A DNA stretch of 64,000 bases from Octopus vulgaris (Eukaryota): NCBI GenBank assembly GCA_951406725.2, contig OX597840.1, positions 8,432,001 through 8,496,000 of the forward strand. The letters are read 5' to 3'. Every line of letters begins with the position of its first letter. Positions within the stretch are counted from its first letter, which is position 1. This document shows, one piece after another, positions 6,054 to 62,598 of this stretch. Made by a program: the position numbers and the translations under genes. The notes below the pieces were generated by a model, which was not told where the DNA came from, ran no database searches, and saw only the letters and a program-made list of their open reading frames with translations.

Positions 6054-6161
6054 CAGATTGGATTTCAATTTCTGCCTGAAGTCTTTGTCTAAGGAAAGTC
6101 TTGCGCGGTCAATGTGTTGAAGCAACTGCAACGGAATTCTGTTGAATTTGGTCTATTTATA
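6054..6161 (-). promoter_or_regulatory. Putative TATA box plus short non-coding first exon (paralog of 55418-55525)
   Basis: Minus strand TATAAATA at 6161-6154, Inr-like GCAGTT ~33 nt downstream, then donor CTG|GTAAAT at 6054/6053. Confidence 0.4.
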
Positions 6162-20786: not shown

Positions 20787-20817
<31 letters not shown>

Positions 20818-20850
20818 GAATGCATGTATGTGTGTATGTATGTATGTATG

Positions 20851-20881
<31 letters not shown>

Positions 20882-21774: not shown

Positions 21775-21805
<31 letters not shown>

Positions 21806-22064: not shown

Positions 22065-22095
<31 letters not shown>

Positions 22096-22330: not shown

Positions 22331-22361
<31 letters not shown>

Positions 22362-22790: not shown

Positions 22791-22821
<31 letters not shown>

Positions 22822-23906: not shown

Positions 23907-23937
<31 letters not shown>

Positions 23938-26712: not shown

Positions 26713-26786
26713 GTAAGTGACCTTCCCTCTTGCCTCTTGTCTCTTCCAATGTAGTGTGTGAAACACAATTTTCGTAAACGTCAATT

Positions 26787-34645: not shown

Positions 34646-37600
34646 TTATCTTTGATAATGGAAGAAAGCAAAAGACTGGCGTCCTGCAATAATTCCAAAA
34701 ACCATGAAAGAATTGTCTGAAATATGAAAACCAAGCACTTGGAAGACTTCGTTATCATCATCCCTGAGTAATAAGTATTTATGAATATCTTCTGATGTTT
34801 GGTGTGGAATATGTCCAGGTATTTGATAAATATTGTTAAGCCTGTCTGTTACATAAACATAGTCACCAAGTGTGGTTAGACAGGGTCTGTGTATAAAATT
34901 ATGGTAATTTCTACATTTTGGCAGGCATATACTATTGACTAACGATTTTTCCCTGTACCACAAGACAACGACATCCTGACTATCATTCTTCCACTTCACA
35001 ACAACAACATCACCACTAGATGTCACTGCTATATCCAACACACCCAATCCTACCTCCTTCCCCATCCGTCTCCACTTCCACCCCTCCCGCATCTTCACCA
35101 CCTCACTATATAATTCATTCTTATGTTCACATGTCCCATTATCAATATCAACATCAAGTACATCTACATAGACACAGAAACCTTCCCTTCTACAACACAC
35201 CAGTTGATTCTCATTGTATTTACAAATCCTGCTGTAGTATTTCTCAGTGTTGATGGTTTTTAAACAGCAGAGATCCCTGTTGAAGACCATCAGTTCATTA
35301 CCAAAGGCGACTATGAAACGTTCATCTGTCCACCGACATATATCTAGTGATGGTCGTTGTGGTAGTGGTTTATGCTGAAGTATGTCACCTGTTGTTGTGC
35401 AGATTAATGTAACTGTGTCTCTAAACATGAACACACTGAAATTGTCATACAACTTAATTAATTTACTATGGTTACTGTCATATTGATAAAGATAATCAAT
35501 AGGTTCTTCCATCGTAGGAATGGAAAGAGGAACCATTGCTGTTCTATATGGCAGTTTCTTCACAGATACTTCCTCAATTCCTGACATACTCTCCGCTATG
35601 TAATTACCACATCGCACCTTTAATCTACCTTTACTAATTATTTCATTTGATTTACCTTTTCTTCCTTCTCCATCTCCCCAACTCTGTTCCAGATTATTAA
35701 TCAATTCAATACTGAATATTTCTTTGTTCATCTGAGATGTAATGAAAGGGAAATGAAGACCAGAATCAAGATTTAATAACGACAAACATTCCAGAACCTT
35801 CAGTTGGTCACCATCAATCTTTATGCAATGATATTCAATTAAGTTAATATGGACACACCAATAAATATTTGCCACTGCTCTCCATATTACACCATAAGGT
35901 ACGTGACTTTGCCAAACTTTATATTTCTCCAGATCTTGTTGCTTCAGTTGAAATATTTCTTGTCGTTTAGGAATTGTAACCATTATGTCCTTTTCGTCTG
36001 TAAAACACACACCACCAACTAAACTTCTAACATCCTTGTGACAAAGCATCAGCCCATCTCTATCAAATATTTTAACAATTCCATTATTGGCTTTCTCACA
36101 CACGACCGTTTTTCCTTCATCAGAGATATCAATATCTTTTACTTGAACAGGACATTTGTCTGTTAGCAAACGAGAAACGGGGAAGATTTCTCGCTTAACT
36201 TGAAACAAACCTTCAACATACAATTTATTTATGTTTGAACAGCTTCCAACAAACCTTGGTCCTTTACAGTTTATGCTACTGAAATTTACTTCATCTTTAT
36301 AAATTCTGTCATTCAAAAATCTTCTGCTGTATTCACCAGTTTGTGTGAAACACAAAATGTTATTATATTTGTTGCCACCAAAATATCTTTCCCACTGACC
36401 ATGGACATACAAATAACAGTTATCAGTTGTCATGGTGTTAGAAATACTGGAATAATCCATATAGTGTCTAACTGAATGTAGATGTTCACCATCAGTGTTG
36501 AAGAAAACAAAGTACCTGTTATTGTTGACAATGATGACATCATTAGCATCAGTTATAATATCATGGACGTTATCTATGCCTGTCTCTATTAGTATCCCAC
36601 CTGCATCCAATTTTTTTATTCTATTCACAGTCAAAAATTCTTCATCAATTTCAAGGACATACAAAGTACCTGCTTCTCCCCGTCTATGACACGCCAGTTG
36701 ATTGTTTGACAAAGAAGTGATAAATTCATATTCATTTTCAGTTTGGTAAATTGTCAACAACGATGGAAATTCCACTTTTAATGTCAACAGTTGGTATTTA
36801 TTATATTTATCACCAGTCGTAATAATCAATGTATTTGACTGCCATCGACACATATTTATATTGGACTTAAACTCGGAACTAACTCCCAACTTGATAAAGT
36901 CCAGAAGTTGACCGTCAAATGTCAATAACTTAATGTTTCCATTTTCACTGTCATACACTGCTATCAGGTTATTTTCAGTAATAACCAGACAATGAATCCT
37001 TACTAATTTTTCATCTCCAAAACCTGGAGGGACAATAACGTGTCTAGCTTTATCAGAAACTGTCAGATCCTGTACATATAATGTAGAAGACCACATCTCA
37101 CCGACACATATGTTTCTAGAAAATACATCTAGTAGGTCGATGTACAAGATAAGTTGATTATTCATGATGTGGTCTCTCCCCACCAAGTTATGGTCATTTA
37201 TAGCAAGCACACGGCTGTTGCCTATCAGATACACAAACATTTTATCAATACATCCTCCAGAGAAATTAAGGGAGTGTTTCACTCCGGACAGGAAATCCCT
37301 GGGGATCATCTTAATACTGTTTCTACAACTATGGCCAACACTATCAATAGAAGTGTTGTACTGAAATACTTTTATTCCTAGTAACAATTAATAGATTTAG
37401 AGTTTCATTTTCTATTTCTAATGATTTTACTACAAAAGGGATATTAATTCTACGAATCATTTCAACCTGATTATAATTTTTAAAGGCTAAAATATCTAAT
37501 TGAGATGGTTTATCAGAATAACAAACGATGTGACCTTTACTCAGCTTACACACCTTTACATAAGCGTGACTTAACGATATGGTTCTAACTGTCTTTGATA

Positions 37601-39091
37601 GGTTTCCAATCACCTGTAATTGTTTCTCTAGGGGTAATGTGACACCTATCTGATTACAATCCCATCGACATATATCTGTAGCTGTCGATGGCAGAGATAA
37701 TCTAGACACAATCTCTCCTTCGTTAGAAATGTATAACAAGCAATCACTGTTTATGTCAGATACCACCAGCTGTCCATTTACTAGATAGCATATTTCGACA
37801 ATCAGAGTTTTTTTGTCATTCTCTTTTTCTTTAAGTCGTATATTCAGGTTTCTTATGTAAGGAGTTTTTATGTGTAAATGACAGCTGGACTGGTCATAAT
37901 ACTCGTAAAGAAGAACCCTGTTGTGTTCAATGTCCGGCACGTAAACAGTTCCTTGGAAAATAGCAATGTGAGGGTGAACAGGGAAAGGTAGCTTCCATTG
38001 CCATTTAATTTCTCCATGTATATTATAACATATCACAACAGACTCTTTTTTGAAGAAAACATAAAAATAAATATTGTCCGAGTGGATGTGATGGGGGTAG
38101 CCGTAGAATTGAAGGTATTTTTCAAAAAGTTTTTCACTAGATGCGGAATAAAATACCAGTTTATTTTTCTTTCTGTCTAGGACTACAAAATTAATTGGAG
38201 TTGCAGCAATGGTAACATTATCATGTTCCAGAGAAATTCTTTCAATGATATCAACTTTGTCTTCCTTAATCAATAGAATATGTATCTCCTGTTTATTATC
38301 ACTGGTAGTCAGAGCTAAACACCTGTTTGATACCATATGACATATTTTAATATAATCAGAGTGACCTTTATTAAAGGGCCTTTGTTTAGTTCAGGACATG
38401 TGATATACTGAAGTCTTTTCATTTCACGATGAAAGACCAGAAAGCTGTTTGAGTTCAGTCTACAAATTATAGAAGGAGAGAAATCAAAAGTTAAATTATT
38501 TTGGCTAATTTTCCCTCCAATATCGGTGAAAAATATAACTTTTATATTCTTGTAGATGATCAGTATAGAAGATGTTGTCATAGGTAGAATATTTGTGATA
38601 TTGTTGCAATCCTCAGTATAGATATAGTTGTTCAAACTATGGCTATGTAGCTGATGGCTGTATGACAACCTGGACCAGAAGTCTTTGTTTGTCTTAATAG
38701 TATGAGGAAAACACAAATAATCAATCAAGAAAATGGTATCTTTGCCAACAGAAATATACCGACATCTCCTGCCAATTTCTCTCTTTGAAACAGCACCTGT
38801 AGCTGAAATTCTGTAAATAATATGTCCCTGGAGGACATAAAAATGGTTTTGATACACAGCGATGTTGGTTGGAAGGTCCAGAGAATGAACCTCTACCTCA
38901 AATAACTGCTGGCCATTGAGATTGTAACAAATAACTCTGTTAATATTGGTAAAGGATATTAACAGATTATTCTGTGATCCTACAGCAATATCTGCTGGTA
39001 ACTCTTTCGCAATGAATTGTTCGATAATTTCATTATCATCCCAGTCAACAAGGTATATGGTTTTACCAAACATTTCTACACCTATAAATGT
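34646..39091 (-). pseudogene. 5'-truncated, twice-frameshifted paralog of the multi-beta-propeller gene
   Basis: ORFs 38315-39154, 37344-38336 and 34646-37387 align to aa ~450-1935 of the 43494-49301 protein; 1-bp deletion at ~38361 and 1-bp T insertion at ~37371. Confidence 0.88.
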
Positions 39092-39324
39092 ACAACTTTT
39101 GAATAAAGAGTTATTGAACTCAAATATAAGAATACAAAATTGGTTGAAGTACATCAGATAATGGGACCTTTCATAGCTTTAAACAATAAACGGCAAACAT
39201 GTTACTCAGGGACACCATCTGCATTAAGATTCATAGCCTAGTCACTTGTTACCATAAATAACGTTGTCAGAATTATAAAATCTACATATATGGATGTGTG
39301 TGTGTCTATATATATATATATATA

Positions 39325-42457: not shown

Positions 42458-43047
42458 AAATAGGGAAAATGAGAAGGGTATACACACTCACACACAAATG
42501 TAGTTTAAAGAAGGTCGTTGTGTAAGACTGGAAGAAGGCGAAAAGTTACAATGTAAACAGCAAAGAGAAAGGAAACAGAACAAAGGTGTTTATCTTGATT
42601 TTCAATATTCCTGGGGTGAAGACGCCTTCTTCAGGATAAAGTGGTAGTTGGAAAAGGTCTTTGCTGAGATTGTGTGTTTGAGAGGGAGACAGGGATGAAA
42701 CGTATGTAAGGTATGTAAAAATTGAATACAAGTTTTCTCTTTATCAAAACAATTTATTTTTCAATAATTAACTTAATACATCGTTAGCACTTATTTATAA
42801 AAAAATATTCACATTTTTAAGTATCATTACATCATATATTTAAATAATTTAAATAAATTTATTTTAATAAGATTTGACTGCTATTTTTAGCAGATGTAGC
42901 TACTATGTAACGTCATTAACTCACAAACTCGTAGAGTGCATTGAAGAATGTTACAACAATAATTGTTAGTGTAGAGAATACAAAGTAAGTGAAGCAGGTT
43001 CAATTCCTAAGTGAAGCCAGTAACAATAGCAACAACAGACCTTAATA

Positions 43048-43478
43048 TTGGGCTGTCCAGAAAGTTCTTGCCGAATTTTAAAGAAAAAAGGTCAATAAAT
43101 ATTTGCCATTACATCTTTAATTAACCACATGTGAACCATTTTGTTGCACAATGTGTCTCTGTCTTTCCTTTAACTTGAAAATACCCTCTTCCCAGAATTG
43201 AAAGGGTTTCATGGCAAAGAATTCATCAAGGTATCTTTTTACGTCATCAAAGGAATTGAAACTTTTATCATTAAGACTATTCTGCAAACACCTGAATAAG
43301 TGGAAATCCGAAGGAGCAATATCTGGTGAATATGGAGCTTTTTATGTGCCACTGGCACGGAGGCCAGGCGAGGCTGGCAACGGCCACAATCGGATGGTGC
43401 ATTTTGCGAAGACCATGTTCTAAAATAAGTCGAAAGGTAAGCTACTATAAATCGGCATGAACTTTCCGGACAACCCAA
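43048..43478 (-). mobile_element. Internally deleted mariner with both TIRs
   Basis: TA-flanked TIRs; paralog of 33760-34630 with a further internal deletion. Confidence 0.88.
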
Positions 43479-43493
43479 TATTTATGAGAACGT

Positions 43494-46400
43494 TTATCTT
43501 TCATAATGGAAGAAAGCAAAAGACTGACGTCCTGCAATAATTCCAAAAACCATGAAAGAATTGTCTGAAATATCAAAACCAAGCACTTGGAAGACTTCAT
43601 TGTCATCGTCCCTGAGTAATAAGTATTTATGAATATCTTCTGATGTTTGGTGTGGAATATGTCCAGGTATTTGATAAATATTGTTAAGCCTGTCTGTTAC
43701 ATAAACATAGTCACCAAGTGTGGTTAGACAGGGTCTGTGTTTAAAATTCAGGTAATTTGTACATTTTGGCAGGCATATACTATTGACTAACGATTTTTCC
43801 CTGTACCACAAGACAACGACATCCTGACTATCATTCTCCCACTTCACAACAACAACATCACCACTAGATGTCACTGCTATATCCAACACACCCAATCCTA
43901 CCTCCTCCCTCATCAGCATCCACATCCACACACCCACCTCCTCCCACTCCCGCATCTTCACCTCACTATACATTTCATTCTTACGTTCACACGTCCCATT
44001 ATCAATATCAATATCAAGTACATCTACATAGACACAGAAACTTTCCCTACTAGAAGAAATACCACCACACACCAGTTGATTCTCATTGTATTTACAAATC
44101 CTGTTGTAGTATTTCTCAGTGTTGATGATTTTTAAACGGCAGAGATCCCTGTTAAAGACCACCAGTCGTTTATCATAGACGACTATGAAACGTTTATTTG
44201 TCCACCGACATATATCTAGTGGTGATGGTTGTGGTAGTTGTTTATGCTGAAGTATGTCACCTGTTGTTGTGCAGATTAATGTAACTGTGTCTCTAAACAT
44301 GAACACACTGAAATTGTCATACAACTTAATTAATTTACTACGGTTACTGTCAAAATCATAAAGATAATTAACAGGTTCTTCCACCGTAGGAATGGAAAGA
44401 GGAACCACTGCTGTTCTATATGGCAGTTTCTTCACTGATACTTCCTGAATTCCTGACATACTCTCCGCTATGTAATTACCACATCGCACCTTTAATCTCA
44501 CTTTACTACTTATTTCATTTGATTTACCTTTTCTTCCTTCTCCATCTCCCCGACTCTGTTCCAGATTATTAATCAATTCAATACTGAATATTTTTTTGTT
44601 CATCTGAGATGTAATGGAAGGGAAATGAAGACCTGAATCAAGATTTAATATCGACGAAGATTCCAGAATGTTCACTTGGTCCCCATCAATCTTTATGCGA
44701 TGATATTCAATCAGGTTAATATGGACACACCAATAAATATTTGCCTCTGTTCTCCATATTACACCATAAGGTACGTGACTTTGCCAAACTTTATATTTCT
44801 CCAGATCTTGTTGCTTCAGTTGAAATATTTCTTGTCGTTCAGGAATTGTAACCATTATGTCACTATCTCCTGTAAAACACACACCACCAACTAAACTTCT
44901 AACATCTTTGTGACAAAGCATCTGCCCATCTCTATCAAATATTTTAACAATTCCATTATTGGCTTTCTCACACACGATCGTTTTTCCTTCATCAGAGATA
45001 TCAATGTCTTTTACTTGAACAGGACATTTGTCTGTTAGCAAACGAGTAACGGGGAAGATTTCTCGCTTAACTTGAAACAAACCTTCAACATACAATTTAT
45101 TTATGTTTGAACAGCTTCCAACAAACCTTGGTCCTTTACAGTTTATGCTAGTGAAATTTACTTCATCTTTATAAATTCTGTCATTCAAAAATCTTCTGCT
45201 GTATTCACCAGTTTGTGTGAAACACAAAATGTTATTATATTTGTTGCCACCAAAATATCTTTCCCACTGACCATGGACATACAAATAACAGTTATCAGTT
45301 GTCATGGTGTTAGAAATACTGGAATAATCCATATAGTGTCTAATTGAATGTAGATGTTCACCATCAGTGTTGAAGAAATCAAAGTACCTGTTATTGTTGA
45401 CAATGATCACATCATTAGCATCAGTTATAATATCATGGACGCTATCTATGTGTCCCTCTAATAATATCCTACCTGCATCCAATTTTTTTATTATATTCAC
45501 AGTCAAAAATACTTCATCAATTTCAATGACATACAAAGTACCTGCTTCTCCCCGTCTACGACACGCCAGTTGATTGTTTGACAAAGAAGCGATAAATTCA
45601 TATACATTTTCAGTCTGGTAAATTGTCAACGACAATGGAAATTCCACTTTTAATGTCAACAGTTGGAATTTAGTCGTAATAATCAGTGTATTTGACTGCC
45701 ATCGACACATATTTATATCGGACTTAAACTCGGAACTAACTCCCAACTTGATAAAGTCCAGAAGTTGACCGTCAAATGTCAATATCTTAATGTTTCTATT
45801 TTCACTGTCATACACTGCTATCAGGTTATTTTCAGTAATAACCAGACAATCAATCCTTACTAATTTTTCATCTCCAAAACCTGGAGGGACAATAACGTGT
45901 CTAGCTTTATCAGAAACTGTCATATCCTGTACATATAATGTAGAAGACCACATCTCACCGACACATATGTTTCTAGAAAATACATCTAGCAGGTCGATGT
46001 ACAAGATAAGTTGATTATTCATGATGTGGTCTCTCCCCACCAAGTTATGGTCATTTATAGCAAGCACACGGCTGTTGCCTATCAGATACACAAACATTTT
46101 ATCAATACATCCTCCAGAGAAATTATGGGAGTGTTTCACTCCGGACAGGAAATCCCTGGGGATCATCTTAATACTGTTTCTATAACTATGGCCAACACTA
46201 TCAATAGAAGTGTTGTACTGAAATACTTTATTCCTAGTAACAATTAATAGCTTTAGAGTTTTATTTTCTATTTCTAATGATTTTACTACAAAAGGGATAT
46301 TAATTCTACGAATCATTTCAACCTGATTATAATTTTTAATGGCTAAAATATCTAATTGAGATGGTTTATCAGAATAACAAACGATGTGACCGTTACCCAG

Positions 46401-49301
46401 CTTACACACCTTTACATAAGCGTGACTTAACGATATGGTTCTAACTGTCTTTGATAGGTTTCCAATCACCCGTAATTGTTTCTCTAGGGGTAATGTGACA
46501 CCTATCTGATTACAATCCCATTGACATATATCTGTAGCTGTCGATGGCAGAGATAATCTAGACACAATCTCTCCTTCGTTAGAAATGTATAACAAGCAAT
46601 CACTGTTTATGTCAGATACCACCAACTGTCCATTTACTAGATGGCATATTTCGACAATCAGAGTTTTTTTGTCATTCTCTTTTTCTTTAAGTCGTATATT
46701 CAGATTTCTTATGTAAGGAGTTTTTATGTGTAAACGACAGCTGGACTGGTCATAATACTCGTAAAGAAGAACTCTGTTGTGTTCAACGTCCGGCACGTAA
46801 ACAGTTCCTTGGAAAATAGCAATGTGAGGGTGAACAGGGAAAGGTAGCTTCCATTGCCATTTAATTTCTCCATGTATATTATAACATATCACAACAGACT
46901 CTTTTTTGAAGAAAACATAAAAATAAATATTGTCCGAATGGATGTGATGGGGGTAGCCGTAGAATTGAAGGTATTTTTCAAAAAGTTTTTCACTAGATGC
47001 GGAATAAAATACCAGTTTATTTTTCCTTCTGTCTAGGACTACAAAATTAATTGGAGTTGCAGCAATGGTGACATTATCATGTTCCAGAGAAATTCTTTCA
47101 ATGATATCAACTTTGTCTTCCTTAATCAATAGGATATGTATCTCCTGTTTATTATCACTGGTAGTCAGAGCTAAACACCTGTTTGATACCATATGACATA
47201 TTTTAATATAATCAGATTGAACCTTTATTAAAGGGCCTTTGTTTAGTTCAGGGCATGTGATATACTGAAGCCTTTTCATTTCATGATGAAAGACCAGAAA
47301 GCTGTTTGAGTTCAGTCTACAAAATATAGAAGGAGAGAAATCAAAAGTTAAATTATTTTGGCTAATTTTCCCTCCAATATCGGTGAAAAATATAGCTTTT
47401 TTATTCTTGTAGATCATCAGTATAGAAGATGTTGTCATAGGTAGAATATTTGTGATATTGTTGCAATCCTCAGTATAGATATAGTTGTTCAAACTATGGC
47501 TATGTAGCTGATGGCTGTATGACAACCTGGACCAGAAGTCTTTGTTTGTCTTAATAGTATGAGGAAAACACAAATAATCAATCAAGAAAATGGTATCTTT
47601 GCCAACAGAAATATACCGACATCTCCTGCCAATTTCTCTCTTTGAAACAGCACCTGTAGCTGAAATTCTATAAATAATATGTCCCTGGAGGACATAAAAA
47701 TGGTTTTGATACACAGCGATGTTGGTTGGAAGGTCCAGAGAATGGACCTCTACCTCAAATAACTGCTGGCCATTGAGATTGTAACAAATAACTCTGTTAA
47801 TATTGGTAAAGGATATTAACAGGTTATTCTGTGATCCTACAGCAATATCTGCAGGTAACTCTTTGGTAATGAATTGTTCGATAATTTCATTATCATCCCA
47901 GTCAACAAGGTATATGGTTTTACCAAACATTTCTACACCTATAAATGTAGAATGTTGTAAATACGAAACCATATAAAAACCCAGGGGAAGTGTTTTCAGT
48001 TTTAAACTAGAAGGATTGATAATAAGAATCATTTGTCTAAAGGGGAGTGTAGCCAGAACAGACTTTTGACCAATTCTGGTAAAATCAGTTACAGAAGACG
48101 GGCAATGAACCTCATTTCTGCCTTTATCTGATGTCGCACAACATATTGTCTTAAAAAGTTCGGAATACGTTACCACCGCATCTTGTAAGACAATAATTTT
48201 TGATATAATATTGCACACGTCTTCCCCTGATTCTTCAATCTTTGCTTCTCTGGTTCCAACCGGACAAACAGAACGAAATTTGTCTATCTTCGGTACACCA
48301 ATGGTCTTGTATGAATTGCTGGTCACAAAGGTGTCATAAAGATTCTTTTGAAACAATTCAAGGTCCTGTTCAATAGAAATATCTTGATTTTTCATATGTT
48401 TCTGCGAGATTCTGTCTTCTTCGATAACTAAATCTTGCCTAAACGCTTTGAATCTTTTAACAGACCAGCTAGTACTTTTATGTCCTTCGTCACTTGATCC
48501 GGAACCATCATCTCTCTCATTTCTCCGTTTTTTCTTTTCAACTCTTTCGTCACTTTTTGTTGCTGGATCACGGGAAACACTTTTCTGAGTAGTAGATGTT
48601 CTTGGAGTATTTTGCAAAGTGGAATTGGTACTTAATCCCGAACATTCGAAGTAGTTGCTCTCCTTAATTATATCTTGCCTAAACTCCTTGCTGCAGCAAT
48701 CTTGAGAATCAATTCTGTGTTGTTCAGCTTTTTGCTGTTGTTTCTTTTCTGTTTCCTTTCTGCTTCCTTTGCCTTTATATGCTTTGAATCTTTTAACAGA
48801 CCAGCTAGTACTTTTATGTCCTTCGTCACTTGATCCGGAACCATCATCTCTCTCATTTCTCCGTTTTTTCTTTTCAACTCTTTCGTCACTTTTTGTTGCT
48901 GGATCACGGGAAACACTTTTCTGAGTAGTAGATGTTCTTGGAGTATTTTGCAAAGTGGAATTGGTACTTAATCCCGAACATTCGAAGTAGTTGCTCTCCT
49001 TAATTATATCTTGCCTAAACTCCTTGCTGCAGCAATCTTGAGAATCAATTCTGTGTTGTTCAGCTTTTTGCTGTTGTTTCTTTTCTGTTTTCTTGCTTCT
49101 TCCTTTGCCTTTATATGCTTTGAATCTTTTAACAGACCTGCTAGTACTATCATGTCCTTCGTCACTTGATCCGGAACCTTCATCTCTCTCATTTCTCCAT
49201 TCTTTCTTATCAACTCTTTCATCACTTTTTGTTGCTGGATCATGGGAAACACTTTTCTGAGTAGTAGGAGTTCTTGGAATATTTCCTTTTGGGTCGTCCA
49301 T
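43494..49301 (-). CDS. 1935-aa uncharacterised protein: 112-aa N-terminal repeats plus ~6 NHL/SGL-like beta-propeller domains, single coding exon
   Basis: 5.8-kb uninterrupted ORF; blade motifs PADIAV, PTNIAV, VYVPDVEHNRVLLY, LVVSDINSDCL, DICQW...VTLP, VYVTD; conserved paralog at 34646-39091; no TE motifs. Confidence 0.88.
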   Translation of the reverse strand: MDDPKGNIPRTPTTQKSVSHDPATKSDERVDKKEWRNERDEGSGSSDEGHDSTSRSVKRFKAYKGKGRSKKTEKKQQQKAEQHRIDSQDCCSKEFRQDIIKESNYFECSGLSTNSTLQNTPRTSTTQKSVSRDPATKSDERVEKKKRRNERDDGSGSSDEGHKSTSWSVKRFKAYKGKGSRKETEKKQQQKAEQHRIDSQDCCSKEFRQDIIKESNYFECSGLSTNSTLQNTPRTSTTQKSVSRDPATKSDERVEKKKRRNERDDGSGSSDEGHKSTSWSVKRFKAFRQDLVIEEDRISQKHMKNQDISIEQDLELFQKNLYDTFVTSNSYKTIGVPKIDKFRSVCPVGTREAKIEESGEDVCNIISKIIVLQDAVVTYSELFKTICCATSDKGRNEVHCPSSVTDFTRIGQKSVLATLPFRQMILIINPSSLKLKTLPLGFYMVSYLQHSTFIGVEMFGKTIYLVDWDDNEIIEQFITKELPADIAVGSQNNLLISFTNINRVICYNLNGQQLFEVEVHSLDLPTNIAVYQNHFYVLQGHIIYRISATGAVSKREIGRRCRYISVGKDTIFLIDYLCFPHTIKTNKDFWSRLSYSHQLHSHSLNNYIYTEDCNNITNILPMTTSSILMIYKNKKAIFFTDIGGKISQNNLTFDFSPSIFCRLNSNSFLVFHHEMKRLQYITCPELNKGPLIKVQSDYIKICHMVSNRCLALTTSDNKQEIHILLIKEDKVDIIERISLEHDNVTIAATPINFVVLDRRKNKLVFYSASSEKLFEKYLQFYGYPHHIHSDNIYFYVFFKKESVVICYNIHGEIKWQWKLPFPVHPHIAIFQGTVYVPDVEHNRVLLYEYYDQSSCRLHIKTPYIRNLNIRLKEKENDKKTLIVEICHLVNGQLVVSDINSDCLLYISNEGEIVSRLSLPSTATDICQWDCNQIGVTLPLEKQLRVIGNLSKTVRTISLSHAYVKVCKLGNGHIVCYSDKPSQLDILAIKNYNQVEMIRRINIPFVVKSLEIENKTLKLLIVTRNKVFQYNTSIDSVGHSYRNSIKMIPRDFLSGVKHSHNFSGGCIDKMFVYLIGNSRVLAINDHNLVGRDHIMNNQLILYIDLLDVFSRNICVGEMWSSTLYVQDMTVSDKARHVIVPPGFGDEKLVRIDCLVITENNLIAVYDSENRNIKILTFDGQLLDFIKLGVSSEFKSDINMCRWQSNTLIITTKFQLLTLKVEFPLSLTIYQTENVYEFIASLSNNQLACRRRGEAGTLYVIEIDEVFLTVNIIKKLDAGRILLEGHIDSVHDIITDANDVIIVNNNRYFDFFNTDGEHLHSIRHYMDYSSISNTMTTDNCYLYVHGQWERYFGGNKYNNILCFTQTGEYSRRFLNDRIYKDEVNFTSINCKGPRFVGSCSNINKLYVEGLFQVKREIFPVTRLLTDKCPVQVKDIDISDEGKTIVCEKANNGIVKIFDRDGQMLCHKDVRSLVGGVCFTGDSDIMVTIPERQEIFQLKQQDLEKYKVWQSHVPYGVIWRTEANIYWCVHINLIEYHRIKIDGDQVNILESSSILNLDSGLHFPSITSQMNKKIFSIELINNLEQSRGDGEGRKGKSNEISSKVRLKVRCGNYIAESMSGIQEVSVKKLPYRTAVVPLSIPTVEEPVNYLYDFDSNRSKLIKLYDNFSVFMFRDTVTLICTTTGDILQHKQLPQPSPLDICRWTNKRFIVVYDKRLVVFNRDLCRLKIINTEKYYNRICKYNENQLVCGGISSSRESFCVYVDVLDIDIDNGTCERKNEMYSEVKMREWEEVGVWMWMLMREEVGLGVLDIAVTSSGDVVVVKWENDSQDVVVLWYREKSLVNSICLPKCTNYLNFKHRPCLTTLGDYVYVTDRLNNIYQIPGHIPHQTSEDIHKYLLLRDDDNEVFQVLGFDISDNSFMVFGIIAGRQSFAFFHYER
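48445..49280 (-). repeat. Coding tandem repeat, 336 bp (112 aa) x ~2.5
   Basis: PRT(P/S)TTQKSVS...VKRFKA occurs three times; side ORFs 48668-48916 and 49004-49252 are offset by exactly 336 bp. Confidence 0.95.
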
Positions 49302-49308
49302 AATGATT

Positions 49309-49335
49309 CTATAATGAAATATAAGGAAAATATTT
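49309..49335 (-). promoter_or_regulatory. 3' splice acceptor 7 nt upstream of the ATG
   Basis: Minus: ttttccttatatttcattatAG|AATCATT-ATG. Confidence 0.65.
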
Positions 49336-49350
49336 AGCTCTAAGAGAATA

Positions 49351-49896
49351 TTGGGTTGTCCAGAAAGTTCGTGCCAATTTTTAAAGGAAAGAAAAAGGTC
49401 AATAAATACTAGCCATTACATTTTTAATCAATCAAATATGAACCATTTTGTTGCACAATGCGTCTCCATCTTTCCTTTAACTTGAAAGTACCCTCTTCCC
49501 AGAATTGAGGTGGTTTCATGACAAAGAATTCATCAAGGTATCTTTTTATGTCATCCAAGGAATTGAAATTTTTACCATTAAGACTATTCTGCTGAGACCT
49601 AAATAAGTGGAAATCTGAAGGAGCAATATCTGGTGAATATGGAGGGTGGGGTAACACATCCCAGCCAAGCTGCAGCAATTTTTGTCTGGTTCCCAAAGCA
49701 TCAAGTGCCGAAAATGAACTTTCTTATCTTCCATTTTAAAGGGTTACAGAATTAACACAGGTTATAGGAAAAGATAGCTTAAATTGTGCTCTATATGGAG
49801 GTGTAATCAAATCCTATTTTACGGACTCAACCATGTCCTAAAATAAGTTGAAAGGTAAGCTACTATAAATTGGCACGAACTTTCCGGACAACCCAA
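49351..49896 (-). mobile_element. Internally deleted mariner (mellifera-like) with both TIRs
   Basis: TA|TTGGGTTGTCCAGAAAGTT...AACTTTCCGGACAACCCAA|TA; N-terminus MEDKKVHFRHLML joined to C-terminus LGWDVLPHPPYSPDIAPSDFHLFRS...QQNGSYLID. Confidence 0.92.
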
Positions 49897-50853
49897 TATT
49901 ATAGTTTGAGGGAGGAAATGTTCATTTCATTACTTTAAAAACACAAACAATGCATATATTACATGGAAAAATGTGAGCAAAAGAAATAATCTTCTTAAGA
50001 TTATAAACCTGGAAAAGTACAGAACAAGTTATTACATCTGGTAAAATATGGAAGAAGAAAATTTTTACTTAAAATATTACAGCTAAGGATAAAACTTCAA
50101 ATAATATATTTAGATTTAGAAAATATTAGCTTTTATTAAAACTGAAAATAATTCAATTAAAATATTTTTTGTATTTCACAAAAATTCATTTTTTTCATTA
50201 TTATTTAATAATTAAATATACCTTTCGTAATACAGTTTATAATAATTTCAGACAATGCAAAATAATTTTCAGAAGCCATTCCACATTAAAATGTTAATGT
50301 AGGATAAACATGTAATGAGAGAAAAATATACTGTCACCAAATTGTTAAATATTCAAGCAATTTTTCTTGTTTATGAAAGGTATTTAAAAATTAGAAATTT
50401 GAAAATACATAATAAAAATAATTAATTAGTACAATAATTAATATAATACAAAAATTAGTTATATATTACAGTAAAATCTATCTATAACAACAAAATCACA
50501 GTAAAATTTGCTTGAGTTACTGACAAAGTTATTGCCAAGTCTTCACATTTTTAGTCTTGACACAATGCCTACTTTTTACATAATGAATTTACCTACCATA
50601 TATACACTTCTACTTTGCATAAAACTTTAGCTATATTCATACTTCTGGTTCTCATTTTTTAAAATATTCAAGTGTATCAATATTTTGACAAAGTGATGGT
50701 ACCTTTCTTTCTACAAATCTATTCTTTCAAATAACTATCACTCTTTCTCCCTCAATTTAAAATTTTAATACAATATTTAAATCTAATCTATGAAGATATA
50801 TAAAAAATATCGTCTTTTAAAACTTAATAGGATGTTAAATTCTTATAATACAA

Positions 50854-51366
50854 CTAGCAGTATCGCCCGGCGTTGCTCGGGTTTGTAAGGGAAATAACTA
50901 TATAAGCATTTTTAGAGAGTTACTTCCCTTATAGATGCCAATTCGGGCTTTCTTAGCCATTTCTGTTTTGGTGTCTTCAAGCTATGAAGTCGTTGTTCTA
51001 AAAGAACGCTAGTCTCCTTGACAACGCTTTATGACGTTGATTTCCTTACACTCCCTTCCCCACAGCTTCACGAGGGAGGGAAGAAGGGGGAGAAGCAAAC
51101 AGGTGCAGGTGTGACCGTGGACGCCAACTCTGCCGCCATCGACACACGAAAAATTATGCATTAAAATGGAATAAAAAATGATGTTAAATTATTTTTAAAA
51201 TCGTAGACTCATCGTAGACGCGCGCTAATACTCAGACGGGCTCAATATGAATCACGACTATAAGATACCCGAATTTGGTTAAACTGCACCGCAAAATGTG
51301 GGAGTAGTTAGGAATCTAAATCGAAGGCGACAGACACTCACACAACTACAGTTTTATATATATAGA
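50854..51366 (-). mobile_element. Non-autonomous Helitron (paralog of 912-1426)
   Basis: TC 5' end; hairpin plus CTAG 3' end on the minus strand. Confidence 0.75.
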
Positions 51367-52148
51367 TTTATGAGTTGAAATGTTAAAACATTAAAATTAT
51401 TTATATATACAGTAAATTATTTGAAAGTTGACATTTTGTTTAAAATATACTAAAATCATATTTTCTGTTCTCTTTTACTCTTTACTCTCTTTTACTTGTT
51501 TCAGTCATTTAACCGTGGCCATGGTGGAGCACCGCCTTTAATCGAGCAAATCGACCCCGGGACTTATTCTTTGGATGCCTAGTACTTATTCTAACGGTCT
51601 CTTTTGCGGAACCGCTAAGTAACAGGGATATAAATACACCAGCATCAGTTGTCAAGCAATATTGGGAGGACAAACGCGGACACACAAACACACACACATA
51701 TATATACATACATATATACGACGGGCTTCTTTCAGTTTCCGTCTACCAAATCCACTCGCAAGGCTTTGGTCTGCCCGAGGCTATAGTAGAAGACACTTGC
51801 CCAAGGTGCCACGCAGTGGGACTGAACCCGGGACCATGTGGTTGGTAAGCAAGCTACTTACTACACAGCCACTCCTGCGCCTGTTGTTGACAATCAGTAA
51901 AAAATGAGGAGAGGAAAAGTGTCGTGGAGCAGCAGCAATCGTTCATGGGCCGGTGCTTCAGGTGCCAGGGACCACACAACAAGGGACTGCACGGAGACAA
52001 AGCCTGAACCCATTTGCTACTGTTGCAGGCAGGCAGGGTATATTGCTCGAAATTGACAGCAGGGAAAAGGCCATGGGGAAGTTGCTGCCCCTCAAACATA
52101 CCCTGAGAGCAAGTAGAGGCTTTAATGTAGTCATGGCCCATAGCTGAA

Positions 52149-52937
52149 AAGGTGGCAAGCTGGCAGAATCGTTCGCACGGCGGGTGAAATGCGTTGCCAT
52201 ATTTCGTCTGTCATTACGTTCTGAGTTCAAATTCCGCCAAGGTCGACTTTGCCTTTCATCCTTTCGGGGTCGATTAAATAAAGTACCAGTTTCCAACTGG
52301 GGTCGATGTATTCGACTTAATCCCTTTGTCTGTTCTTGTTTGTCCCTTCTATGTTTAGCCCCTTGTGGGCAGATAAAGAAATAGGTATTTTGTCTGCCGT
52401 TATGTTCAGAGTTCAAATTCCGCCGATGTCGACTTTGCCTTTCATCCTCTCGGGGTCGATTAAATAAATTACCAGTTTCCAACTGGGGTCGATGTAATCG
52501 ACTTAATTCCTTTGTCTGTTCTTGTTTGTCCCTTCTATGTTTAGCCCCTTGTGGGCAGTAAAGAAATAGGTATTTTGTCTGCCGTTATGTTCAGAGTTCA
52601 AATTCCGCCGATGTCGACTTTGCCTTTCATCCTTTCGGGGTCGATTAAATAAATTACCAGTTTCCAACTGGGGTCGATGTAATCGACTTAATTCCTTTGT
52701 CTGTTCTTGTTTGTCCCTTCTATGTTTAGCCCCTTGTGGGCAGTAAAGAAATAGGTATTTTGTCTGCCGTTATGCTCAGAGTAGTTGAAATTCCGCCGAG
52801 GTCGACTTTGCCTTTCATCCTCTCGGGGTCGATAAATTAAGTACCAGTTATGCACTGGGTTCGATGTAATCGACTTAATCCCTTTGTTCTTGTTTGTCCC
52901 TTCTATGTTTAGCTCCTTGTGGGCAGTAAAGAAATAC
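52149..52937 (+). repeat. SINE family B tandem array, 4 units
   Basis: Anchors at 52336, 52522, 52707, 52890. Confidence 0.9.
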
Positions 52938-54814
52938 ATTGCCCATAGTTAAATTCCTGGTTGGAGGAAAGGTGTTCAAAGCCCTCATGGATATGGGCTG
53001 TACAATGTCTTGCGTGAACCCAAGGGTAACAAAACAACGGAAGGGGATGAGTAGTGTCCCGGCAATCGAAGCAGTGAAATTGGATGTAAGACAAGCAGCA
53101 AATTAGAAATAGCAGTGCAGAGCACAACATCATCGTCATTGTTCGACCGTGGTCAAGACAATGGAATTTACTATGTTACGCCAGACTTCACGGTCATCAT
53201 AGCATTACAGAGGTCCTGTAGCTGGATGCCTGTATCCCTGGAGATTACATCAGGGTAGGAGAGTGTGTGCCCTCTGGTTTCGTGAGTAGATTGCTTCCAT
53301 AGGAGAAGAGTAGAAATTGCCTTGTTTTCAGCTCTACAACAATATCCAGCAAACTGGACTCTTGTACCTTTCACAAGAGATGACACAGGTGGTAGTTTCC
53401 CATATATTTACATTTTGGTTGGATGACGCTTCCATGAGAGATTTTGAGCTCTCATAAGGAGGCGAGTGTAAGTTCCATCCAACCGCCTCTCGAGCTTCTT
53501 TGATAACGTCCAGGCTTCTGAGCCATATAGTAGATTTGGTTCGACTATATATATATATATATATATATACAATCATCATCATTGTTTGCCCGTGGTTGAG
53601 ACAATGGAATTTACTATGCTACGCCAGACTTCACGGTCCGTCATAGCATTACGGAGGTCCTGTTGCTGGATGCCTGTATCCCTGGAGATTATTCAGGGTA
53701 GGAGAGTGTGTGCCCTCTGGTATCGTGAGCAGATGGCTTCAAGAGGAAAAGTGTAGAAATTGCCTCGTTTTCAGCTCTACAACAATGTCCAGCAAACTGG
53801 ACTCTCCTACCTTTCACAAGAGATGATACAGGTGTAGTTTCCCATATATTTGTACTTTGGTTGGATGACACTTCCACGAGAGATTTTGAGCTCTCGTAAG
53901 GAGGCGAGTGTAGGCTGCGGGTAATTGTGATCGACCATGTGGTAGAATGAACTGATGTGGTGATGGGCATGGACGTAATCAACCACCTAGGAGGTGTCAG
54001 TGTTTGTGGAGACATGGTTTCATTTCGTGTTACAGGGGCATTATGCGCGATGTGTCTGCAACAGGAGAAAGGAAAGCACCATGGGGCAGAAAGGGCTGCT
54101 TACACCATTGAAGATAAAGATTTTCAGGCAGTGTTCGACGATCAGTGGTAGACTGTTGAGTGGCGCTGGAAAGAGGAGCCCTCAATGCTGAGAAACAGGC
54201 TAAGCTTTTGTCATCATACCTTGGAAGGAGATGCTAGGAGTGAGTTTGAAGGAGAAGTAGAGAGATGGATCAAGGAGGGTATCCTTATCCTGTGGAAGGA
54301 AGAAGTGAAGAGCCGAGTGCTCCGACTGATGGTAATGGTACAGCCAACAAAGGGCAAGGCCAGGACTGTACTGGACCTTCGAGAGATCAATGGTCATGTG
54401 TCGTGCCACACGGGCGGCGGGGTAGGTTAGGTAGGTGTATATTAAGAAAATGGACATTCAAATGCAAAACGCGAGCAGAACAACTAAATAGATACTCTCT
54501 TGCAGTCAAAAACTAAAAACGTTGTTGGTTAATTTAGAAAACTTTAGACCGTTTCATTTGGTATTATGAGAAAAATACAAAAACTAAGCAGACTCCAGCT
54601 CGTGCCGAGGGATTTAGAAAGTAAATTTTTTAAGGCGGATTAAATTCAACAGCTTGAAATGCTAAAATGTTACTCACAAAATAATGTATATATACAAAAA
54701 TACATACCAAATAGCTACAAGGAATTGATATACAGATAGCTCTGATGAATGCTTAATGATGTAAATGTGCTAGAAAATTGTAAGTTGATTAAATAAAACC
54801 TGATAATATTTTTT

Positions 54815-55312
54815 TAAAATATGCCCTCCATGAGGCATTTGCCATATTCTGAACGCCTTACTTCCCTGGGCATGATACATTGAAACTCCGACGTCTGGCA
54901 GCTGACTTGGCAGACACCCATAAAATTATTAACCATCTTACAAACAATAACTCTGAGCACCTTTTCAAACTCCACCCGTCTAACACCCGTGGGCATATTT
55001 ACAAAGTCAGAAAACAGCACAGCTCCCATGACTTCAGGAAACATTTTTTCACGCTGAGAGTTGCTGAAGCATGGAACAAACTGCCGGCATCAGTTGTTAG
55101 TTGTCGGAGCACTGCATCCTTCAAAACTTCCATGCTTCCTGAGATTTGCCAACACTACACCTGATTTTCTCCCCTCCATACACATGCAAGCATGTATCTG
55201 ACTCATACATTGTTCACTTCCCAGACATTTGTACATTACTGCATATGCTTTATACGCACTTTCTGACAAGTTGTGGTGCACCTGAGCACTGTATACAATA
55301 ATTTCATTATTT
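54815..55312 (+). mobile_element. CR1-group LINE 3' fragment
   Basis: Paralog of 5450-5948; TRGH...HFFTLRVAEAWNKLP. Confidence 0.85.
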
Positions 55313-55417
55313 TAAATGGTAACTAAAATTACAGGAGGAATCTTAAAAATTATCAAGTAAAATTGAAAACTATAGATTTCAATAAAGTTTTGAAGGAAGA
55401 AAAAATATAATATTTAC

Positions 55418-55525
55418 CAGATTGGATTTCAATTTCAGCCTGAAGTCTTTGTCTAAGGAAAGTCTTGCGCGGTCAATGTGTTGAAGCAACTGCAACGGAA
55501 TTCTGTTGAATTTGGTCTATTTATA
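55418..55525 (-). promoter_or_regulatory. Putative TATA promoter and non-coding exon 1 of the 1935-aa gene
   Basis: TATAAATA (55525-55518), Inr-like GCAGTT and donor CTG|GTAAAT (55418/55417) in a non-TE island; same strand as the orphan acceptor at 49309. Confidence 0.45.
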
Positions 55526-55665
55526 GGGTGGCAGTCAGAGATGTTTACACTTGCAGTTATTATATTTTGAGATAAGAATCTGTTGTGTGTATGGGGGAGT
55601 CTGTGTGCGTATGCAAGCTTTTCACATAATCTGTTATGCACTTAGTCACATATACATACATACAC

Positions 55666-55716
<51 letters not shown>

Positions 55717-56013
55717 TATTTATTTTAAATATATATATATATATATATATATAGTGTTGCATATGTGTTACCGCTACTGTTTATAACTCACTCTGAGATT
55801 TATCATTATATATGTATATATATATATATATATATATAGGCATAGGAGTGGCTGTGTGGTAAGTAGCTTGCTAACGAACCACATGGTTTCGGGTTCAGTC
55901 TCACTGCGTGGCACCTTGAGCAAGTGTCTTCTACTATAGCCTCAGGCTGACCAAAGCTTTGTGAGTGGATTTGGTAGATGGAAACTGAAAGAAGCCCGTC
56001 GTATATATGTATA

Positions 56014-56970
56014 TCTCTCTATATATAAAAGGCAGGTTGTCTGTCTTTGTGTCTGTCAGGTTGTACCCTCACCCTGACCACGGTTTTCAACCGATTCTGA
56101 TGAAACTTGACACACACATAGCCCAATGTCATAATTCAAAACTAACGCAGCGAATATTTTGAAATTTCCCCTAGTTCTGAAAAAAATCAATAAATTTGAC
56201 ATTAGGGTCGAGAATCTAAGCTTTTCATATGCAACACATTTTCTGTTGTAGTTTTCGCAACTATCAATCGATTTTATCCAAACTCATGGTGAAGCTTAAT
56301 GTTACCCTAAGAAACTTAATTCTGACGTTAGTTTTCTATGCAATACCTTACCATCAGAAAAAAATCGATAAAATCATGCCATTTTGGGAAATCGCATTCA
56401 AATTCAAGATGACATATTTTCGACAATATCTTTAACAAATTGGCAGGAATTTTTTTTTAAATTCACAGCAAGCATCATGTCTGCTCCAAGGAGCTATATG
56501 GCCCTTTTTATTCCAATAGGATACTTTATTACTGGAAAAAATCGGTTAATTAAATCATATGTGGCACACATAGCAAACCGATTTGTGTATTAAACACAAG
56601 CCACAGACTGTGTAGGGGACGCAACTCGAACTTCTTTAACTCTCTTACTTCCCCAAATAACTTTCAAACAGCTATCGATAATTCAACCCACAGGAGGAAA
56701 TCTAGACTTAATCTTCAAGGTATCCCACATACAAACCAAAAGTTACATTGAAACCTCCAGACTAACCTAAGTTTTTGTGCACCAATTCCTACCAGGAAGA
56801 AATTACATTCGAGACTTTACCCCCAACACCGCCACTTCAAGCAGTGAATGAGACAAAACATGTCCAGACAACATAACCTTGGTATACTTCTGCTAATCGC
56901 TGCTAAAGCCGCCAGTTGTTGCCTACTAGGGGCTCTTACATACCCGGGCAACGCCGGGCTATGCTGCTAG
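56014..56970 (+). mobile_element. Non-autonomous Helitron inside SINE A (paralog of 6625-7580)
   Basis: TC start; CCCGG/CCGGG hairpin plus CTAG|T. Confidence 0.85.
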
Positions 56971-57970
56971 TATATATATATATATATATATGCGTGTGTG
57001 TATCTGTTTTTGTCCCCCTAGCATTGCTTGACAACCGATGCTGGTGTGTTTATGTCCCCGTTACTTAGCGGTTCGGCAAAAGTGTCCGATAGAATAAGTA
57101 CTGGGCTTACAAAGGAATAAGTCGATTACATCGACCTCTGTGTGTAACTGGTACTTAATTTATTGACCCTGAATGGATGAAAGGCAAAGTCGACCCTGGC
57201 GGAATTTGAACTCAGAATGTAACGGCAGACAAAATACCTATTTCTTTATTGTCCACAAGGGGCTAAACACAGAGTGGACAAACAAGGACAGACAAATGGA
57301 TTGAGTCGGTAAGGACAGACAAATGGATTGAGTGCGTAACTGGTACTTAATTTATCGACCCCGAAAGGATGAAAGGCAAAGTCGACCTCGGCGGAATTTG
57401 AACTCAGAACGTAACAGCAGACAACATACTGCTGAGCATTTCACAGGCATACAAACACTTCTGCCAGCTTGCCACATTACAGAACCCGTGTCTGGTGACT
57501 TTTGTGTAGCCCTTGTATGTATACATGCAAACACAGAGAAAGCAATTTTCACATCATGAATGTTTACGTATGATTTTAGGTTAAGCATAAACAACCGTAT
57601 ATATACACTAAACTATCATTTTCAGTCATAATTAACTAACTAACTAACATCTACATCTGGCTATAAACACATGTATTTTGCTTATCAAATTGAGGCTGTC
57701 GTATTGGACTTCTTTATCTGCATAATTGTTCCCATGTCTGTCTGTATGTATGTATGTAAGAATGTATGTATGTATGTATGTATGTATGCATGCATTAATG
57801 TATGTATGTATGTGTGTGTATGTATGTATGTATATATGTATGCATGTATGTATGTAAGAATGTATGTATGTATGTATGTATGTTTGCATGAATGTATGTA
57901 AGAATGTATGTAAGAATGTATGTATGTATGTATGTATGTATGTATGTATGTATGTATGTATGTATGTATG

Positions 57971-61100: not shown

Positions 61101-62598
61101 TCTCCATGTTGGTCGTCTTCTAGTCGTCCTCTTAGTCCTGATCCTAAAGTCACTAACTACCAGTCTATGTTGTGGGGTACATTCTTCGCCTGGGAAAGTT
61201 TCGGCATTTATAAGCAGCCATCTTTCCCTTTTTCTGGTAAGGATGTAGTAGATTTGGCTAGTATGCCGGCCCGATCGGTAGGTGACCAGGTGGCTTGTCG
61301 GTTTCCTGAAGTTAGTGTTGCAAACCATAAGACTATTCGCATCGCAGAACTCCAGCAGCCTGGTTCCCTCCTCGTTGCAGGAACCATAGCCGTAGCCTCC
61401 ATGTACACCATGGAAGCCCCCAGCATATCGTCCAACATGCCCATTGAAGTCACCAGCCACAAAGAGAAGGTCCCTGTCGTTCGTCAATGAGGTGGTCTGC
61501 AGAAGGGTGTCATAGAAACGGTCTTTCTGTCCATCGGGTAGCCCTGGCTGAGGGGCATAGGCCGATATAATGGTTGCTAAACTATGATGAAGCACTAATC
61601 TAATCTTAAGTATTCTGTCACATACTCTGACTACCTCGGTTACCTTATCTACCCATTTTTCGGCAATAAGTATACCCACACCCCGACCCCATCAGTATTC
61701 CAAGCCCAGAAAATCTTGTACCTCTGTCCTTTGCCTGTGAGGAACCTAGCAGAACCTCCTCTCCACCTCACTTCTTGAATGCAGCATATATCAACACACC
61801 TCCGTTCAAGCAATTCAACGATCTCGCCAGACCTGCCTTTCAGTGTGCCAACGTTGAGGGTGCCAACCCTGAGGGTGTGGGAGGTATTGGCCCTAGTAGC
61901 GTCATGAACCTGAAAAGAAAACTCACGTTTGGCAGGATTCATAGACAAACAATAAAACTCAAGTTCCAACCGCGTACACTACACTAACATATCTTGCAAT
62001 GAATGACCACTACCTTTTATGGAAGGAGGTGGGGGTGGCGTAAGACTTTGAAGTGTACAAGGGAGACAACAAGGATGAGAAAATTTAGGACTTCCTGTAC
62101 CGGTGGAGGGGGTGGGAAGGCGGGTGCACCGTGAATACTAGCAGCCATGTACGCCATTCCTTTCTTGGAAAGGAATTACTTATTAGTAGGTATAAAATAC
62201 CTAAATTTGCGAGAGAGATATTTTGCCTATCTATGGGAAATGCGTGAGCTATATTTATCTTAGTGATAAGGAGCTATAAAATTATAAATATATTTATTCT
62301 ATATTTAACGAGACGTGAGGATGATCAATAAGATTAGGGGTCGAGCTATAGGATTATATATATATTTAACACAAGACATGAGACATCGATATATTGAGAT
62401 GAACTATAGAATTATATATATATATATAACACGAGGCGTGAGGCTGAAATAGACAAAGTCATAACAGAATAGAGATAAAACAGGGGTAACGAAAGATCAC
62501 AGAAATATTTCTGGTAGGTATGGGCTGAATGAAATTAATATTGCTTAGCCTGAATTCATTTTTTGGACGAAGTTGACAGCAACAGTTTGAATCAAAAA
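58197..62598 (-). mobile_element. Near full-length RTE-clade LINE, frameshifted, inserted in (TATG)n
   Basis: APE (TLNVGTL, CIQEVRW, AGDFNGHVG, PQHRLV), RT (KAPGPSGI, NYRGIKLL, HQGSVLSP, LYADDL), C-terminal RLRWYGHV...GRPRKTW, 3' UTR, (GAT)n tail. The 5' boundary is inferred from the resumption of TATG at ~62599. Confidence 0.92.
58846..61969 (-). pseudogene. RTE APE-RT ORF with stops and frameshifts
   Basis: Consecutive ORF pieces 61649-61969, 60747-61679, 60171-60683, 59251-60015, 58846-59244. Confidence 0.9.

Follow-up and report, generated by a model that had tools for sequence, protein, structure and literature searches.

What does an octopus do with a giant, single-exon protein in which Pfam finds no family at E ≤ 1? 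The question is raised by a stretch of 64,000 nucleotides of Octopus vulgaris DNA, here called the window (assembly GCA_951406725.2, contig OX597840.1, positions 8,432,001 to 8,496,000 of the forward strand), in which the minus strand carries a coding sequence of 1,935 amino acids (aa) at 43494..49301. The protein contains six homologous units that originate from the C-terminal propeller of TRIM proteins, the genome has more than 100 copies of the gene, the copies are mosaics, and positive selection is concentrated in units 4 and 6. On balance, and with somewhat more confidence than doubt, we take this to be an expressed gene from an octopod family of diversified intracellular sensors, in which propellers 4 and 6 would bind variable foreign proteins; the immune role itself is one that we infer. 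Two of these features went beyond the first-pass annotation of the locus: the scale, at least 104 places, and the confinement of diversification to two of the six units.

Six units and their TRIM-NHL ancestry

The six homologous units emerge only from profile-profile comparison; plain self-BLAST sees no internal repeat. All six align in register with a profile built from 13 cephalopod-type TRIM propellers (probabilities 96.1-99.3, E ≤ 3.4e-9), and, judged by this profile comparison, all of them originate from the TRIM C-terminal propeller, as the first-pass annotation had supposed in pointing to the NHL-like C-termini of molluscan TRIMs. Outside the family, the best eukaryotic relative is a cuttlefish RING-B-box-NHL protein (CAE1315789.1, Sepia pharaonis; E 8e-8). 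A bacterial-type repeat protein outscored it (7e-12) via many short stretches, and the bacterial WD40 and delta-60 matches were set aside as generic repeat similarity. Used as a query, the cuttlefish protein retrieves octopus TRIM-NHL genes whose entire frame lies in one exon, together with unit 4 of family members, and these one-exon relatives explain why the giant exon is intronless. Dispersed octopus TRIM-NHL-like genes with the whole or most of the frame in one exon were seen at L162-L164, L174-L177, L179 and L180, some of them without a canonical RING. Contig C21 carries an intronless gene for a 1,836-aa RING-B-box-coiled-coil protein (L161:1977-7484); considered as a possible intermediate, it was rejected, since its tail is very long and of low complexity and inspection by eye shows no propellers.

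As the first-pass annotation had stated, there is neither a RING nor a B-box among Pfam results at E ≤ 1. The Pfam NHL repeat (PF01436) has no match above cut-off in the protein or in 21 aligned members, and in the divergent member P0053 it stays below the threshold; the Atlas features indicate NHL at 0.91, and sequence searches of the PDB gave nothing significant.

The fold was modelled with AlphaFold2 over aa 590-1640 from 55 sequences (mean predicted local distance difference test, pLDDT, 68.6; predicted template modelling score, pTM, 0.40), so that the propellers of units 2-5 are modelled and those of units 1 and 6 rest on homology. Unit 1 (aa 345-595; 47517..48269, like all the units on the minus strand) is a predicted NHL-type propeller (probability 97.3), and unit 2 (aa 596-857; 46731..47516) a predicted six-bladed propeller of 24 strands. 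Unit 3 (aa 858-1130; 45912..46730; probability 99.3) is a predicted propeller of 18 strands, about four and a half blades, with a low-confidence end. Unit 4 (aa 1131-1410; 45072..45911) is predicted to be a complete six-bladed NHL propeller, again of 24 strands; unit 5 (aa 1411-1628; 44418..45071) is a partial propeller with 12 confident strands in three blades; and unit 6 (aa 1629-1935; 43494..44417; probability 97.9) is a predicted propeller. Hence the earlier claim of about six beta-propellers holds for the number of homologous units and fails for six complete propellers, units 3 and 5 falling short. The expectation of a propeller-based structure was borne out: the top 11 structural matches all lie over unit 4 and are the NHL domains of Brat, TRIM2, Mei-P26, TRIM3, TRIM71, Thin and Lin41 (Z 21.5-23.1, root-mean-square deviation 3.0-3.5), with Brat at Z 23.1, deviation 3.2 and 248 aligned residues. 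Foldseek with the whole model returned generic multi-propeller proteins alone, at template modelling scores near 0.2, and single-sequence folding of aa 340-1138 was unusable (pLDDT 33.9).

The first-pass annotation had further arranged the propellers as three A-B pairs, from two alternating motifs. The motifs are where it placed them, with [VA]T[LI]P (motif A) at aa 417, 935 and 1484 and CR[LW] (motif B) at 661, 1199 and 1698; the arrangement itself is not supported. Each motif corresponds to one half of the ancestral second blade, and unit 3 has both together in one blade (aa 924-938). Profile-profile probabilities are 40, 6 and 1 for the A-A pairs and 83-97 for the three B-B pairs; the top five among the nine A-B pairs reach 96, 91, 90, 84 and 84. 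Nor do trees group units 1-3-5 or units 2-4-6: the approximately unbiased test (p-AU) gives 0.04 for an A clade and 0.05 for a B clade, values that are borderline, from a quick tree with long branches.

An octopod array with two hypervariable units

A 400-aa probe finds at least 104 places in the genome at E ≤ 0.001, a lower bound from scoring 104 of 214 candidates: 82 on contig C28, 8 on C27 (the contig of this gene), 7 on C31 and 7 single. To these are added one divergent member on C2 and three further places on C28. Nearly all of 100 fetched loci cover the entire six-unit region without introns, and the six-unit frame is unbroken in 32. In the protein databases, a word-based search returned 46 proteins, all from three Octopus species (O. 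vulgaris, O. sinensis and O. bimaculoides); their identity is 44-95%, and their records call them "uncharacterized" or "hypothetical". Among the 40 matches of a profile search over 1.84 billion representatives, the six-unit ones with checked names come exclusively from Octopus or Argonauta hians; shorter homologues, sought with a divergent member among 8,000 scored candidates, amounted to one octopus fragment. The earlier description of a lineage-restricted, uncharacterised protein in a dynamic array is thus apt. For two divergent members, P0053 and P0043, each of the three Octopus species has an intact counterpart; these lie on large contigs, and the two members are candidates for old, stable copies. 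Divergent dispersed members at L147/L165 (G000:C2) and L114 (G000:C9), with about 32% and about 50% identity over units 2-5 and likewise intact counterparts in three Octopus species, are candidate ancestral copies.

The copies share flanks only inside a subfamily and therefore spread by segmental duplication and not as a mobile element; a transposon-borne reading frame was ruled out on the same grounds, the C27 copies sharing a distant first exon as segmental duplicates do. Moreover, the copies are mosaics, the data of each unit favouring their own tree and rejecting most of the others. Variation in unit 1 is independent of that in unit 4 or unit 6 (rho 0.04 and 0.00); the latter two change together (rho 0.91) across the intervening unit 5 (0.62-0.66), the most homogenised of the six. 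In-frame insertions of 60-150 aa, or poly-Asp expansions in a unit-4 loop, were seen at L028 and L031 (unit 4) and at L076, L078, L085 and L086 (units 3-4).

Selection was assessed with codon site models, unit by unit, on 14 of 33 intact copies; near-identical and divergent copies were excluded, and gapped columns were dropped with their neighbours. Under M0, the ratio of nonsynonymous to synonymous rates (omega) is 0.34, 0.55, 0.50, 1.73, 0.65 and 1.27 for units 1 to 6, so that unit 1 reads out as under purifying selection, units 2 and 3 as conserved, and units 4 and 6 as hypervariable. Twice the log-likelihood difference (2ΔlnL) of M2a over M1a is 0.5, 17, 15, 429, 13 and 230 in the same order, with a selected class at omega 13 on 16% of sites in unit 4 and omega 9.7 on 15% in unit 6. 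Among seven C27 copies (this gene and several broken ones), for which the test covered units 2-6, the statistic is 25 for unit 4, 41 for unit 6 and 3-5 for units 2, 3 and 5. IQ-TREE reproduces the M0 values, and in six of six null simulations 2ΔlnL was at most 1.3. Nonsynonymous differences per site (pN), pooled over 12 close pairs, come to 0.099 for unit 4 and 0.084 for unit 6, against 0.027-0.041 for the other units, though the ratio pN/pS of those two units is only 0.96-0.98.

Within unit 4, the only unit for which faces were assigned (by hand, against the AlphaFold2-modelled strands), 27 of the 36 selected sites fall in b-c or d-a loops, which offer about 88 residues; the other nine are in strands, mostly at strand ends adjoining those loops, and none is in the a-b or c-d loops of the bottom (about 45 residues). 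In NHL domains, the b-c and d-a loops make up the ligand-binding top face (PMC4015489, in part). On the model, then, the selected sites of unit 4 are predicted to lie on the top, binding face. Net charge at the selected positions, over the 14 copies, runs from -3 to +4 in unit 4 and from -10 to -2 in unit 6, the latter an acidic unit throughout (-9 to -20 for the whole unit). Units 2-3 are net basic, unit 3 at +3 to +8 in all 14 copies, and Arg is enriched at the selected unit-4 positions (14% vs 5%).

The gene, its transcript and the rest of the window

The first-pass annotation had drawn a giant single-exon frame at 43494..48250. The frame is real and its coding part is one exon, but that interval covers only the last ~1,585 aa, and a spliced non-coding exon precedes it. 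Stop to stop, the open frame spans 43494-49415 on the minus strand (1,973 aa), and from the ATG at 49301 it gives the 1,935 aa; the exon starts at 49308, the acceptor being known from spliced contigs. A polypyrimidine tract and AG sit 7 nt ahead of the ATG, as they do in 14 of 34 long-frame paralogs. Contigs of two sequencing runs from two studies (X6 and X16) depart at 49309 into the same 30 letters, which equal 55419-55448 without mismatch and with a GT donor next. These junctions and the exact match establish a 6,109-nt GT-AG intron (49309..55417, minus strand) ahead of one giant coding exon. The large run X18, considered DNA on account of its size, continues through 49309 unspliced. The first exon (55418..55681, minus strand) has a demonstrated 3' end at 55418; its 5' limit, at about 55681 (at least ~263 nt), is inferred from the lengths of contigs that end in a (TA)n tract. 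Since it contains stops in the frame of the giant exon, one of them across the splice junction, it is 5' untranslated region, and the intron lies within that region. Run types are guesses, and evidence for RNA and expression therefore rests on the splice junction, which suffices to uphold the view that the gene is transcribed. By the same guesses the gene is present in 17 RNA-like runs from six studies. Contigs from all four runs examined cover most of the frame, in pieces, and could stem from any close C27 copy; upstream single-copy stretches had no cover in the four runs and were not counted as evidence.

Ahead of unit 1, the N-terminal region (aa 1-339; 48285..49301, minus strand) comprises a charged low-complexity tail and a module of about 75 aa that is helical by pattern and conserved across 28 members. 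By sequence profile, the module scores a probability of 0.4 against the TRIM B-box/coiled-coil region, with no match to the TRIM coiled coil, the alignment of the 28 members has no Cys/His pattern that would indicate a B-box, and the Atlas offers no usable cluster match (best 0.80). In this copy the module is scrambled by an in-frame tandem duplication of 336 bp (2.5 copies; 48445..49284, minus strand) that is absent from the closest intact paralog. The duplication junction, seen solely in the 43494-49301 copy, is present in a contig of run X1, perhaps from the same animal. Hydropathy shows no N-terminal hydrophobic stretch, although no dedicated signal-peptide predictor was used, and no clear membrane segment, the highest 19-residue window being 1.73 at aa 1801. 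Both absences agree with the first-pass annotation, and because of them a cytosolic location of the protein is likely, as far as its sequence tells.

A sister subfamily in the same genome has a giant exon that starts just ahead of unit 1, a description that eight of nine loci examined fit fully; its loci are L097 with L191-L193 (G000:C28:8151318-8187699), and L096, L099-L102, L105, L120 and L169. At L097, the giant exon has ankyrin-like and RING exons upstream of it, in the same orientation, and the database model P0108 joins them, from which an ankyrin-RING head fused to the six-unit exon is predicted for this subfamily. For the gene at 43494-49301 such a head was ruled out, the gene splicing to a non-coding exon, and no RING near it (C27, 8.37-8.69 Mb) is among the matches listed. 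On C28 there are two RING matches among the best 150 of 251 candidates. Contigs C29 and C31 have dozens of near-identical RING (PF13920) exons in clusters, another large expansion and probably a MIB2-like family.

A second copy in the window (34646..39109, minus strand) is 95.5% identical and 5'-truncated, beginning within unit 1, with 1-bp frameshifts at 38363 and 37373; it is likely a pseudogene fragment. Window positions 1-7733 duplicate 49943-57123, and the copy of the first-exon end at 6055..6084 (minus strand) belongs to a neighbouring paralog, L043, just left of the window. On either side of the giant exon is a short element with terminal inverted repeats of 37 nt, the two being related to each other (43044-43482 and 49347-49900), which we take to resemble Tc1/mariner-derived miniature inverted-repeat elements (MITEs); the upstream one terminates 39 nt from the splice acceptor. 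Broken non-LTR (long terminal repeat) retrotransposon frames, presumably endonuclease- and reverse-transcriptase-like by eye, lie at 11376-15648, 25626-29300 and 59251-61691, and at 19341-24176 a (TGTA)n-type microsatellite extends over 4.8 kb, with about 1,200 units.

Function and comparison with known systems

A constant framework, a variable top face, gene conversion and frequent loss together suggest a recognition arms race. Selection on a predicted binding surface, conversion and birth-and-death are hallmarks of diversified innate immune receptors. In the mechanism we propose, propellers 4 and 6 would bind variable pathogen or parasite proteins via their top faces; units 1-3 and 5 would form a constant scaffold for host partners; and the repertoire would be renewed by duplication, gene conversion and loss. 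Without a RING the output would need a partner, so that the protein, lacking the B-box as well, would act in trans, through signalling or the recruitment of a ubiquitin ligase, and the sister subfamily would have its predicted ankyrin-RING head in cis. A protein is a more probable ligand than RNA, given that selection acts on neutral positions in unit 4 and on acidic ones in unit 6. A bolder version, possible but in our estimation doubtful, is an "antibody-like" germline-encoded intracellular repertoire, made up of about 100 genes of a single small chromosome. There, four constant propellers would serve as a framework that presents the co-evolving hypervariable propellers 4 and 6 as a composite binding site, shuffled by conversion and coupled to a ligase in trans or, in the sister subfamily, in cis.

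Several considerations pull against the sensor reading. The site tests used in-house likelihood code with naive instead of Bayes empirical Bayes posteriors, and the null simulations were run without recombination. Such tests are inflated by recombination, and nominal significance extends to units 2, 3 and 5, whose small signals are probably at a level that recombination alone can reach. Pooled pairwise pN/pS for units 4, 5 and 6, with more divergent pairs included, is 0.96-0.98 and thus not above 1. The frame is broken in 68 of the 100 fetched loci, where pseudogenes and assembly errors mostly were not told apart, and the 43494-49301 copy may itself be impaired, given its scrambled N-terminal module. 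The AlphaFold2 model, at its mean pLDDT of 68.6 and pTM of 0.40, does not fix how the domains pack. Finally, positive selection fits reproductive or intragenomic conflict equally well.

That last point is the core of what we regard as a rather unlikely alternative, in which the family would serve germline conflict (gamete competition, or segregation distortion and its suppression), a setting that also gives ampliconic arrays, conversion and positive selection. The array is indeed ampliconic, homogenised by conversion, situated on a small contig and rich in broken copies, and Mei-P26, a protein of the TRIM-NHL type, acts in the fly germline (PMC9070667, in part); against this, presence in the 17 RNA-like runs is broad for a gonad-only gene, a count made on guessed run types.

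Unlikely as well is an RNA-binding repertoire, in the manner of Brat and TRIM71, whose propellers diversify in an arms race to track transposon or viral RNAs. The nearest solved folds are RNA-binding NHL domains, unit 3 is net positive in all 14 copies, Arg is enriched at the selected unit-4 positions, and retrotransposon frames abound at the locus. However, RNA-binding NHL domains have an electropositive top face (PMC4015489, in part), whereas in units 4 and 6 selection falls on neutral to acidic positions, and in some copies a unit-4 loop is expanded by poly-Asp. The first-pass annotation had offered recognition or RNA binding as the function; positive selection in units 4 and 6 backs the former, and the charge at the selected positions makes the latter the weaker guess.

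We give little credence to the notion that these are ubiquitin-ligase substrate adaptors with diversified endogenous targets, for instance in neurons. It would suit the TRIM ancestry and the joined ankyrin-like and RING exons of L097, but the first exon of this gene is non-coding and RING matches on C28 are few. Moreover, endogenous targets rarely produce omega near 10.

In the least probable reading, the array arose passively by segmental duplication of repeat-rich DNA and is for the most part decaying, with omega above 1 as an artefact of recombination and misalignment. This reading has in its favour the 68 broken loci, the pairwise ratios near 1 in units 4-6 and the strong mosaicism. It is largely refuted by purifying selection on units 1-3 (omega 0.34-0.55), by two divergent members intact in three Octopus species, and by a strong signal that only two units show, that appears again in a second subfamily, that avoids the bottom loops and that persists after gapped columns and their neighbours are removed.

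To our knowledge, few recognition molecules have been identified in cephalopod immunity. If the sensor reading holds, a TRIM sensor domain has been multiplied sixfold and divided into constant and variable modules, and two defined hypervariable domains with a list of selected positions make intracellular recognition in the octopus directly testable. Searched by family, locus names and features, the full-text literature yielded no published description, although supplementary orthogroup tables, outside that search, may list the family. In the portions at hand, PMC9068888 and PMC9795677 do not mention "NHL", PMC7656900 mentions neither "NHL" nor "propeller", and PMC10700109 has no mention of the family's features. 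Published expansion lists rely largely on Pfam, which misses the six-unit family. For scale, Aplysia has 22 TRIMs (PMC9334734, in part) and the octopus has 149 of its 168 protocadherin genes on one chromosome (PMC9068888, in part), a cluster to which the present one, with more than 100 genes, is comparable in size.

How, then, does the family compare with systems already known? It shares a homologous propeller with the TRIM-NHL proteins (subfamily C of Marín: Brat, Mei-P26, TRIM2/3/32/71) and with the cephalopod RING-B-box-NHL TRIMs, and several octopus TRIM-NHL genes likewise have the whole frame in one exon. However, a TRIM-NHL protein has one propeller, whereas the octopus family has six units, no detected RING or B-box, no match to the TRIM coiled coil and more than 100 copies; its selected positions, unlike the tops of RNA-binding TRIM-NHL domains, are not electropositive. 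Vertebrate TRIM5/finTRIM B30.2 arrays and fungal HET-WD40 proteins combine tandem birth-and-death with a constant framework and a hypervariable binding face under positive selection, and in all this the octopus family resembles them. In those systems there is one binding domain per protein; in the octopus there are two co-varying propellers plus four constant ones, and no effector domain. The TRIM-like proteins, as defined in PMC3503706 (in part), include Malin/NHLRC1, Brat and Wech, which also derive from TRIMs by duplication and domain loss; they retain either a RING or B-boxes, together with one propeller, whereas here the RING-B-box-coiled-coil part is undetectable and the propeller has been multiplied. 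The coleoid clusters of protocadherins, C2H2 zinc fingers and S-crystallins (PMC9068888 and PMC9795677, both in part) are likewise multi-megabase, lineage-specific products of duplication and conversion, but they are Pfam-detectable and described, whereas the six-unit family has no Pfam match at the curated cut-off. By definition, then, the family is not TRIM, though it would by inference work like a diversified TRIM-type sensor, and its design of six units with two variable modules sets it apart from TRIM-NHL and from the other systems compared.
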